64,000 nucleotides of DNA. It comes from Hormiphora californensis. Its lineage: Eukaryota > Animalia > Ctenophora. Below, piece by piece: positions 42,054 through 45,000 of the stretch. The notes below the pieces were generated by a model, which ran no database searches, had not been told where the DNA came from, and saw only the letters and a list, made by a program, of their open reading frames with translations. The position numbers and the translations under genes are program-made. Location: NCBI GenBank assembly GCA_020137815.1, contig CM035356.1, forward strand, positions 2,480,001-2,544,000. Reading direction: 5' to 3'. How positions within the stretch are numbered: position 1 is the first letter of the stretch; every line of letters starts with the position of its first letter.

Positions 42054-45000
42054 TCACAGTTTGACACTGTGCCTGCTATTCCTCATACACAGGTACACAT
42101 CAAAGGCAGATGTTTTGGAGACAAGGTAGTGTAGGGGAGTGTTTCCCTTATCATCAGGGCAGTTAATATCTGCACCATACGCAATGAGAAGTGCCGAGGT
42201 GGTCCCCTGAAATGTAATTTTATTGGTTCAACAATCAACAGTCAGGATAGAATGGTTAGGTTAACAACTCCCTGGGTTTCAAATTCACTCCTTGCTGACT
42301 CGAAAAAGGGAGTCAACTAAGTCAACTAGTCTAACTATGACGTCACAACTACAACGTGTTATGACGTACACATACTCACATGTTGCTGGGCGGCGCTCAC
42401 ATGCAGGGCAGTGTGGCCATTCATTCTAGCCTCTGTATCCATTCCATTCTTTAGCAAGAGCTCCAGCAACCCGTCATTACCTTGGGAGAATTGTGTTAAT
42501 AAACAACAATATAATGATACTAAACCAATACAGGGCCACAGGGGGAATTGTGGAGAGGTGTGTTTAGCAATGTGGGTCAGAGCTCAGAGATGCAGAGTTC
42601 CAAGCTGGAAAAACCCCGGAAAAACCCTGTCTGGCGTTGCCAGACCCCGACCCTATTTTTCTGCTTTACTCTGAGTGTGGGACAGACAGGGAGAACAAAA
42701 GGGTGTGGAGAATTCTCCACTAGTGTATACACTGGGACTTGGCCGGTCCAGCTAGTATGGTGTTTGGCCAGTACCTGCAACACACGTTAGTGATAGCATT
42801 ATAACCACATCGCAGTCTGGATGCGGACAAATTCTGAGGTCTCAGTACGGTTACGCAGTCAACAACTTAATATATTGTAAATTTCTTCAGTCAATCAATC
42901 TGCAAACGTTATCAGTTTTACTTTAACTTGAAGAACTTTGTAAGTATCGCGTGAGGGCATCATTTGAGCATCTTCGACGAGCCCCGCAGTTACAACGGTT
43001 CTCTACTAACGTGTGTGCAGTACAACACCATGCTGATACCGACACACCTACTGAATCACTCCCCTTTTTATACCCCTCATTCTGAATAGAAACATTCTTT
43101 GGAGGTTTGTAACATGAGAGATTTAGCACAAATACAAGATAAAGCCTGTCACAAGTATTATACAGAACAAGCAAAAATTGGTATGGAGAATTCTCCACTA
43201 GTGTGTACACTGGGAACCTTGGCCGGTAGAAGCGTGGTGTTTGGCCTGGCATCAGTAATTGACACACACATGGGCTCAAGGCGTGGCCTCAAGCCCCCTG
43301 CTGAAAGCAGCAGCGCCTATAACCTATGTCTGGCCCTGCTACAGTCAGCAGGGGGCTTAGAGACACGTGGGCCTAGATATGTGCGTTGCTACTGTTTACC
43401 ATTGGCCACATTGATGCCTGAGTGAGATCGAGGTCGCGCAGCGACCGAGATCGATCTCACATCTATTCTTCGCGGAGCGAGAATAGGTTGCAATGGAGCC
43501 AATGTTTACCACACCACTGTACCGACAATACAAACATGGCATGACCCCTTTTATACCCTTCATTCAGAATAGAAACTTTCCTTTGAGGTTTGCAACTGTT
43601 GTCTGCTAAACAAACAATTAGCAATGTAATTTTCTACTTAATGTACAAACTGCCATCTGCCCACAGTTGAAGTTTGCCAAATACAACAAACATAGTATCG
43701 AAGGAAAAAGCTCAAAAAGGGTGTGGAGAATTCTCCACTAGCGTGCACGCTGGGAAACTTGGCCGGTACTGACATGGGATCTGGCCAGATAGCGACATCC
43801 AAGGTTCACCTGAAACCTCACTCCTAAACGCCCCAATCTAGCACCATCTCAACTCAAAGACTGGTCCACTACACAACATTTGCGCGAACACCACGCAGGG
43901 GACCGGACGCAAGCCCAAGGGCCAAGTACTTGCAAACTTAGAGCAAGTCCAGGCAAACCTTGAATACCACATTACACCACCGTACCGCAATAACATGAAA
44001 GCATTCCCCTTTTTATACCCATCTTTAAAAAAATTCCTTGCAGGTTTGTAACGTGAGAGGTTGTAGAAATACAAGATAAAGCCTGTCACAAGTATTATAC
44101 AGAACAAGCAAAAAGGGGTGCGGAGAATTCTCCACTAGCATGTACACAGGGAACCTTGGCCGGTCCAGTATAGCGCCTGGCCAGGGAATGTACAAGACAC
44201 GAGGCTGAGGAATGAAACGATATATTGCGACTCGATTATTATTGTGATTGGTGTGAGCCGCAATTATTTAATCGTATCACCATTCTGTGTGGCAGAATGG
44301 TGATCCCCATCATTCCCAACCTCGCATGCTGTACACTGCCATACTGAGACCGACAGATACTCTAATTCTTTCCACTATTTATATCCTGTATTCAGGATAG
44401 AAATGATCCTTGCTAGTTATGGTCTTCTAAATGAATAAGGAATGATCTACTTCCTATTTTGTATGCAATATGTGCATATAATATCTATTCGGAGCTAGGC
44501 TTTTTAGCATGGAGAAATTCACCGAGAATAAAAGGGTGTGAGATAGTTAAATCGTAAAGTGCATCATAGCACTTGAATTGCTCATACTTTATGAGTACGG
44601 ACACAGTGTCAGGCGACTCAATAATGAATTGAATCAACACAGCACATGACATAACATACCGTTGAATGCTGCCAGATGTAGAAGTGATGCCTGTTCCAAC
44701 TCAAGGTCTGGGGTAAAGGTGAGCAGTAGTTCCACCATAGCTAGATCACTTTGTTCCACGGCCAGGTACACCAGAGATCGTCCTGGGAGACTAATATCAC
44801 ACTGTCAGTCAAATTATAGCTTCAGTCACACTGTCAGTCAAATGATTGTTCACACTGTCATACTGTCACACTGTCAGTTAAATGATAGCTCACACTGTCA
44901 CACTTTCGAGTTACGTATCACACTGTCAAGTTTTTCTGTCAGCGATATTAAACTTTGTGTTGCTTAGTAACCAGGTGTGTATCAATTCTGTGAGCCATGT

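Follow-up and report, generated by a model that had tools for sequence, protein, structure and literature searches.

Does the intron of an ankyrin-type gene in the ctenophore Hormiphora californensis harbour a family of independently transcribed RNA genes and, if so, what kind of RNA would these genes produce? The question is raised by an array of four minus-strand units within a 64,000-nucleotide stretch of DNA (hereafter "the window"), for which the original prediction had proposed RNA polymerase III (Pol III) transcription of products with shared ends and private interiors. Here we analyse the layout, the predicted folds and the possible relatives of the four units, and weigh a Pol III scaffold reading against four other explanations.

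Four units with unrelated interiors in one intron

The array and its surroundings comprise the following features, unit lengths being counted from the +1 G to the first T4.

44660..44782, minus strand: host ankyrin-gene exon 5' of the array (ankyrin matches below cut-off; AG before, GT after; frame continuous with the next exon)
42481..44659, minus strand: GT-AG intron of 2,179 nt containing the array, with the units on the same strand
44115..44354, minus strand: unit 1, predicted RNA of 240 nt (folding z -8.6)
43719..43988, minus strand: unit 2, predicted RNA of 270 nt, the most diverged copy (folding z -3.3)
43178..43526, minus strand: unit 3, predicted RNA of 349 nt (folding z -12.6)
43460-43422, minus strand: GAUC-GAUC hairpin of unit 3
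43367-43282, minus strand: long hairpin of unit 3
42701..43043, minus strand: unit 4, predicted RNA of 343 nt (folding z -4.7)
42380..42480, minus strand: host ankyrin-gene exon 3' of the array (ankyrin match below cut-off; in frame with the preceding exon)

The proposed site, an ankyrin-gene intron, is corroborated by the GT-AG intron at 44659-42481, by the two flanking exons (42380..42480 and 44660..44782), which share one reading frame, and by ankyrin matches in four of the four host exon pieces tested, every one of them under the Pfam cut-offs. The host gene and all four units are read from the minus strand, and the units are entirely intronic. Elsewhere in the window lies a carboxylesterase gene that, across 81% of its length, is 88% identical to a protein of Pleurobrachia bachei; Mnemiopsis proteins are about 32% identical to the same carboxylesterase. 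The comparison points to a Pleurobrachia-like ctenophore as the host.

The interiors of units 1-4 measure 150, 180, 258 and 252 nt. Similarity between interiors exceeded that of dinucleotide shuffles in none of the six same-strand and none of the six reverse-strand pairs (p 0.15-0.995), which bears out the notion of four copies whose constant ends enclose mutually unrelated interiors. The accompanying image of a constant scaffold with variable cargo holds in so far as the interiors are unit-specific and folded; that they are cargo in the sense of exchange or guiding goes further and can only be inferred. Protein coding was rejected, because the longest ATG open reading frame per unit spans 22-44 amino acids and none exceeds 44.

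Starts, ends and predicted fold of the units

Upstream elements, TATA boxes, terminal T runs and 3' modules were located as follows; the cores of units 1, 3 and 4 come from an ungapped stack of the units on +1.

44390..44403, minus strand: unit 1, core of the upstream (PSE-like) element, -49 to -36
44378..44383, minus strand: unit 1, TATAAA at -29
44120..44182, minus strand: unit 1, 3' module (GGCCA 44182; closing arm 44164-44159; hairpin A 44148-44137; hairpin B 44135-44120)
44110..44114, minus strand: unit 1, terminator-like T5 run
44020..44047, minus strand: unit 2, upstream element with a core about 6 nt shorter
44012..44017, minus strand: unit 2, TATAAA at -29
43723..43786, minus strand: unit 2, 3' module (GGCCA 43786; closing arm 43767-43762; hairpin A 43751-43740; hairpin B 43738-43723)
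43714..43718, minus strand: unit 2, T5 run
43562..43575, minus strand: unit 3, core of the upstream element
43550..43555, minus strand: unit 3, TATAAA at -29
43183..43246, minus strand: unit 3, 3' module (GGCCA 43246; closing arm 43227-43222; hairpin A 43211-43200; hairpin B 43198-43183)
43173..43177, minus strand: unit 3, T5 run
43079..43092, minus strand: unit 4, core of the upstream element
43067..43072, minus strand: unit 4, TATAAA at -29
42705..42769, minus strand: unit 4, 3' module (GGCCA 42769; closing arm 42747-42742; hairpin A 42733-42722; hairpin B 42720-42705)
42697..42700, minus strand: unit 4, T4 run
44067..44114, minus strand: 48-nt tract identical to 43177-43130, from the T run onward
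44524..44625, minus strand: weak candidate for the decayed 3' end of a fifth unit

In all four units the first T of TATAAA (44383, 44017, 43555 and 43072 in units 1-4) lies exactly 29 nt ahead of the conserved +1 G (44354, 43988, 43526 and 43043), so that every predicted position was confirmed. A TATA distance near -30 is typical of type-3 Pol III genes. When the units are stacked on +1 without gaps, TATAAA is invariant in four of four, whereas positions -17 to -2 are only 38% alike; unit 3 keeps the 29-nt spacing despite one A less behind TATA. The upstream element had been described as common to the four units. Its 14-nt core at -49 to -36 is indeed intact in units 1, 3 and 4, which share 12 of the 14 positions, but in unit 2 it has lost about 6 nt. 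The Rfam search found no snRNA gene in the 64-kb window.

Each unit ends in the expected run of four to five Ts (5, 5, 5 and 4 in units 1-4). The further observation that TTTT is confined to the spacers holds in part: an internal T4 occurs in none of the four units, which is weak evidence because many shuffles lack T4 as well (78, 20, 83 and 41% for units 1-4, jointly about 0.05), but a T4 run beyond the terminator itself is found in only two of the three spacers.

The 3' module is present in all four units, although the gap after GGCCA, put at 12-16 nt in the original prediction, is 13, 14, 14 and 17 nt in units 1-4. A model built from the module scores 94-102 bits on its four source copies, which match by construction, and the next-best score in the 64 kb, 15.7 bits, falls on the copies' own palindrome on the opposite strand. 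In the twin 3' hairpins, which have four-letter loops, 39 of 40 cells pair, and the changes among copies are one two-sided and four one-sided, the latter all giving G-U on the minus (unit) strand; covariation of the hairpins in these four sequences does not go beyond the shuffle control, where 234 of 500 shuffles reach it. The possible relic of a fifth unit scores 9.5 bits, with an E value of 0.6 for the whole window and of 0.006 when only 601 nt, picked after the relic had been seen, were searched; it and the end of unit 4 have a 16/17-nt repeat in common.

One closing stem is predicted to form between the shared 5' and 3' blocks, around a strongly folded, unit-specific interior, and to be followed by two hairpins and a U tail. 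In this model the 5' block pairs with an ACCGGC block 41-44 nt before the end, the first six pairs having probabilities of 0.96-1.00 in units 1, 3 and 4, and the stem continues after a small break into an upper stem. In the best fold of unit 2, by contrast, the partner of the 5' end is the tail, and the common fold is 6.7 kcal/mol costlier. GGCCA, on the 3' side of the stem, is open in units 1 and 4 and paired in the predicted folds of units 2 and 3; folding without the 5' end lets GGCCA form an alternative 5-bp pairing with the closing arm. The deeper arms prefer their own partner in three of the four units (-37, -36 and -28 kcal/mol versus cross pairs at best -20), the upper stem picks its own arm in unit 1 and, marginally, in unit 3 only, and cross-pairing of the outer stem does not tell units 2, 3 and 4 apart.

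Whole units 1-4 fold with the z values listed above versus -3.5, -1.3, -6.1 and -3.2 for the opposite strand. The interiors alone reach -7.8, -3.2, -12.4 and -3.9, those of units 1, 3 and 4 containing perfect stems of 10-14 bp, and all seven spacers and flanks range from -2.6 to +1.2. These values are to be read against a repeat-rich window in which strong folding is frequent (z <= -3.3 in five and <= -4.7 in four of 40 background blocks) and in which one of six strongly folding background blocks has a strand gap similar to that of the units. By G-U count, units 1 and 2 alone favour the sense strand, and a wobble count that is neutral to strand (G-T 5 versus A-C 1) is not significant (p 0.11).

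The tract at 44067..44114 likely arose by gene conversion or unequal crossover; right beside its 48 identical spacer nucleotides, 7 of the 44 tail positions differ between units 1 and 3. Segment identities among the units form a mosaic, a pattern that conversion or unequal crossover would be expected to leave in a tandem array. Taken together, the 48 identical spacer nucleotides, the differing 44-nt tails and the unalignable interiors suggest that recent exchange was confined to the spacers while each transcribed part stayed distinct. Every copy would then likely be under its own selection, with spacers swapping between copies.

Candidate Pol III genes and competing explanations

No Rfam family reached its gathering score in the 64 kb, and the covariance search proposed as a check on the units gave chance-level matches only, with best scores per unit of 11.9-19.8 bits, far under the cut-offs, although Rfam models of short RNAs may miss a relative carrying a 150-260-nt insert. 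A clear Rfam match, which would contradict the prediction, was thus looked for and not found, and the earlier statement that the units match neither U6, SRP, RNase P/MRP, vault nor tRNA stands for the window and for each unit. tRNA genes were likewise absent from the 64-kb window, and U6, SRP, RNase P/MRP, tRNA, 7SL and known ribozymes were rejected as candidates for want of an Rfam or tRNA match. The exact 17-nt module motif occurs in 37 metagenome, one viral and eight GTDB (bacterial) stretches; the remaining parts of the module accompany it at none of the 38 metagenome and viral loci, and blastn of the array against phages gave no match. These blanks weigh little, because the collections searched are mainly microbial and none is a ctenophore genome set. 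Within the window, neither blastn nor the 3'-module model revealed further copies in the remaining 62 kb, and blastn detected no complementary target for the interiors. One sequencing run assigned to the species by its label gave two partial contigs over positions 36000-50000, neither of them on the array nor on the bulk of the host exons, an outcome neutral as to transcription of the units. A search of the full-text literature, with most subscription papers outside it, returned no description of a ctenophore Pol III RNA of such kind. A 2009 study reports that Y, vault and 7SK RNAs are expected in early-branching animals yet were not found there, because homology search fails on them (PMC2655684). 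The four units are a real candidate for a Pol III RNA family that is likely undescribed.

A promoter pattern that lies outside the folded part, its fixed spacing and the type-3 layout lead us to infer that the units are four Pol III genes. Judged from sequence, we hold this to be very probable: TATAAA at -29, the G start, the upstream core, the T runs and the recurrence in four copies all support the type-3 reading put forward originally. The same layout is that of U6, 7SK, RNase P/MRP and Y genes (review PMC12193147). In such genes SNAPc and TBP would load Pol III upstream. The 5' end of the transcript is then predicted to pair with the block located 41-44 nt upstream of the 3' end, enclosing the heavily paired interior, and the two-hairpin tail would leave an oligo-U beyond the closing stem.

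As to function, we lean towards products of 240-350 nt that serve as modular protein-binding scaffolds, in which a handle common to all copies bears a body specific to each. The U tail and the last hairpin would be recognised by La or a La-related protein and the closing stem by a second common protein, while each interior would recruit or titrate its own partner, a role that falls to the loops in Y RNAs and to the central stems in 7SK. That the handle binds shared proteins is proposed by analogy, because La binds U tails (PMC10498592, PMC4726728) and LARP7 binds the 3' end of 7SK (PMC10083321, PMC8406779). Unit 2 counts against the scaffold reading, as it prefers another fold and has a damaged upstream element. 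Going one step further, the units might represent a hitherto unrecognised class of Pol III RNAs in animals, whose invariant handle, made up of closing stem, twin hairpins and U tail, holds interchangeable structured bodies that are swapped as cassettes; this we regard as speculative and rather unlikely. If it were true, the cassette RNAs would be the deepest-branching kin of the Y and 7SK riboregulators, or else carriers of hairpin payloads, and under the payload reading such carriers would exist in the one animal phylum that lacks microRNAs.

A related explanation retains the Pol III genes and sees the relevant product in small RNAs cut by Dicer from the long interior hairpins, bypassing the lost Microprocessor. 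Ctenophores have lost Drosha and Pasha and lack the Microprocessor (PMC6206976), the interiors fold strongly on their own with the perfect stems described above, and the long hairpin of unit 3 gives weak pre-miRNA matches (18.7-19.8 bits versus cut-offs of 65-100). These matches, however, are at chance level, the predicted interiors are branched rather than single clean hairpins, and the blastn search for a complementary target in the window was negative. Dicer usually needs a short 3' overhang, which the 41-44-nt tail removes, and we consider this explanation improbable. Slightly less credit still is due to the main rival, which takes the units for copies of a non-autonomous rolling-circle transposon of the Helentron-associated HINE/DINE-1 type with captured filler inside. 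HINEs are described as flanked by T and as having a palindrome at the 3' end, with 3' subTIRs at a distance of 38-60 bp from that end (PMC4067079), and the units resemble them in having inverted arms near both ends at similar distances: the 3' arm lies 41-44 nt from the T run, within the HINE range, a 3' palindrome is present, a T precedes +1 in four of four units, and the G-T pairs on the unit strand would suit single-stranded DNA as well. The palindrome, however, ends 4-5 nt before the Ts rather than the 8-35 bp described (PMC4067079), and the arms common to all copies are 6 nt long, with a fixed G-T mismatch in three of four, rather than the 11-15 bp of identical subterminal inverted repeats in HINEs. 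The TT flank is found in four of four units on the 3' side but in only two of four before +1. TATA and the upstream core lie beyond the supposed 5' end, where they are conserved at a fixed distance even though the intervening sequence has drifted; in addition, the other 62 kb hold no dispersed copies, and the interiors are self-paired rather than alien filler.

Comparably small is the chance that the units are a selfish or decaying repeat with a Pol III promoter and no host function, such as SINE-like source genes, retrozyme-like RNAs or relics. A tandem array with recent spacer exchange, one damaged copy (unit 2) and a possible relic of a fifth would fit this picture, and the size of the units falls within the range of small circular RNA repeats. 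Against it, ribozyme, tRNA and 7SL matches are missing, the B box, judged by its usual consensus, occurs in none of the four units, and each interior, though unalignable with the others, retains its own pairing, an outcome that neutral decay would not produce. Least probable by a clear step is processing from the host pre-mRNA intron, in the manner of intronic snoRNAs and without transcription of their own. The units are wholly intronic and on the host strand, and in units 2 and 4 an ACA stands 3 nt ahead of the T run, but every unit is equipped with a TATA and an upstream element of its own, the ACA is absent from units 1 and 3, the final 70 nt of units 1 and 2 contain no H-box pattern, none of the four units contains box C, and no snoRNA match comes near any cut-off. 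Independent Pol III transcription of scaffold-like RNAs therefore remains our preferred reading.

Comparison with known RNA families

Several structured RNAs were set against the units and rejected. H/ACA RNA was dismissed as the H-box pattern and ACA are not common to the units, and C/D snoRNA for lack of box C in all four and of any snoRNA match near cut-off. Telomerase RNA was discarded because the template hexamer, in its usual pattern, occurs in none of the four units. Animal telomerase RNAs are characterised by a telomere template and H/ACA boxes in an account that makes no mention of ctenophores (PMC8480181).

Vault RNAs and nc886 likewise come from tandem Pol III genes (PMC10498592). 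By the usual consensus, an A-box-like stretch is found in units 2 and 3 only, that of unit 3 at +3 with one mismatch. Vault RNAs have conserved ends and a variable middle. The units differ from them by the missing B box, by their much greater length and by 3' terminal letters that are unpaired with the 5' end in the common fold.

Closest in gene organisation, with a cluster of four genes, and in stem plan are the vertebrate Y RNAs and the nematode stem-bulge RNAs (sbRNAs), as compared by their described features. They too are encoded by several Pol III genes with individual promoters (PMC4726728, PMC4450293, PMC12193147). Both groups have an oligo-U end and a stem formed by 5' and 3' blocks around a variable interior, which in the units is predicted and in unit 2 holds only under constraint. 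The closing stem may bear a letter-level likeness to those of vertebrate Y3 and the C. elegans Y RNA. The A/GUG-CAC/U of the Y/sbRNA upper stem, a motif of 3 bp among copies that are related to one another, is seen in units 2, 3 and 4, with AUG-UAU in unit 1. By contrast, human Y RNAs measure 84-112 nt versus 240-349 nt for the units, and their stem runs straight into the U tail where the units have 41-44 nt with two hairpins between. The single bulged C of the Y/sbRNA lower stem is not common to the units, which leave U8 (unit 1), G8 (unit 2), C8 (unit 3, in a C-C mismatch) and A7 (unit 4) unpaired, and the UUA(U/C)C motif at the loop start occurs nowhere in any of the four. The Y/sbRNA interior is single-stranded whereas that of the units is paired, and Rfam gives no match.

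7SK is the closest in size (about 300 nt) and has a type-3 promoter (PMC10083321, PMC8406779). Its circular model (M1/M3/M8) similarly pairs the 5' end near the 3' end around a poorly conserved centre. A conserved 3' hairpin with a U tail is a further shared trait, the units' version being predicted (PMC10083321, PMC8406779). The paired GAUC motifs of 7SK are found in unit 3 only, near the 5' end, while units 1 and 2 have one GAUC each and unit 4 none. Unlike 7SK, the units have two 3' hairpins, both with four-letter loops, and place four unrelated interiors side by side; Rfam gives no 7SK match. On paper, the units belong to neither family by these tests, yet they resemble both Y and 7SK RNAs in plan.

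Sequence shared between units and flanks of the array

Among the four minus-strand candidate type-3 Pol III RNA genes (units 1–4) that lie in one ankyrin-gene intron, units 1 and 3 are followed by spacer sequence that is the same at 48 of 48 letters (44114-44067 and 43177-43130), beginning with the first letter of the terminator-like T run. The adjoining tails, the last ~44 nt of the predicted RNAs, mismatch between these two units at 7 of 44 places. The identical tract is likely a recent conversion tract.

At 44625-44524, ahead of unit 1, there is a weak match to what may be the relic of one more 3' end, the fifth; a 17-letter stretch in it agrees with the terminal part of unit 4 at 16 positions. 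A short way past unit 4 lies one copy (42622-42650) of a 29-nt repeat whose other copy, at 83% identity, occupies 41735-41763; the repeat is probably a small mobile-element fragment.

Alternative fold of unit 2

In unit 2 (43988-43719), the 5' end is predicted to be able to pair with hairpin A, the first of the two tail hairpins. Unit 3 has comparable, weaker complementarity, and the two cases together hint at a two-state fold in these modelled structures.

Other genes and repeats in the window

The remaining features comprise genes, four of them presumed from inspection by eye, and repeats:

62148-63791 (-), single-exon carboxylesterase
57191-57967 (+), presumably a seven-helix receptor-like ORF
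60643-61128 (-), presumed NEK-like kinase exon
12754-13787 (-), presumed cyclophilin exons
16883-22043 (-), presumed biotin-carboxylase exons
41288-41512, minisatellite, 23-nt period, 7.6 copies
50412-50977, minisatellite, 163-nt period, 3.5 copies
6424-6639, 7777-7989 and 8437-8649, repeated element, three copies, one in opposite orientation
18500-18201, fold-back block, z < -25 on both strands
12500-12201, fold-back block, z < -25 on both strands

Positions 1-1500, of low complexity and rich in homopolymers, look like poor-quality assembly. All three copies of the repeated element yield the same open frame of 71-72 residues. The fold-back blocks, whose folding is very strong by their z (more negative meaning stronger), have a character typical of MITE-like inverted repeats.
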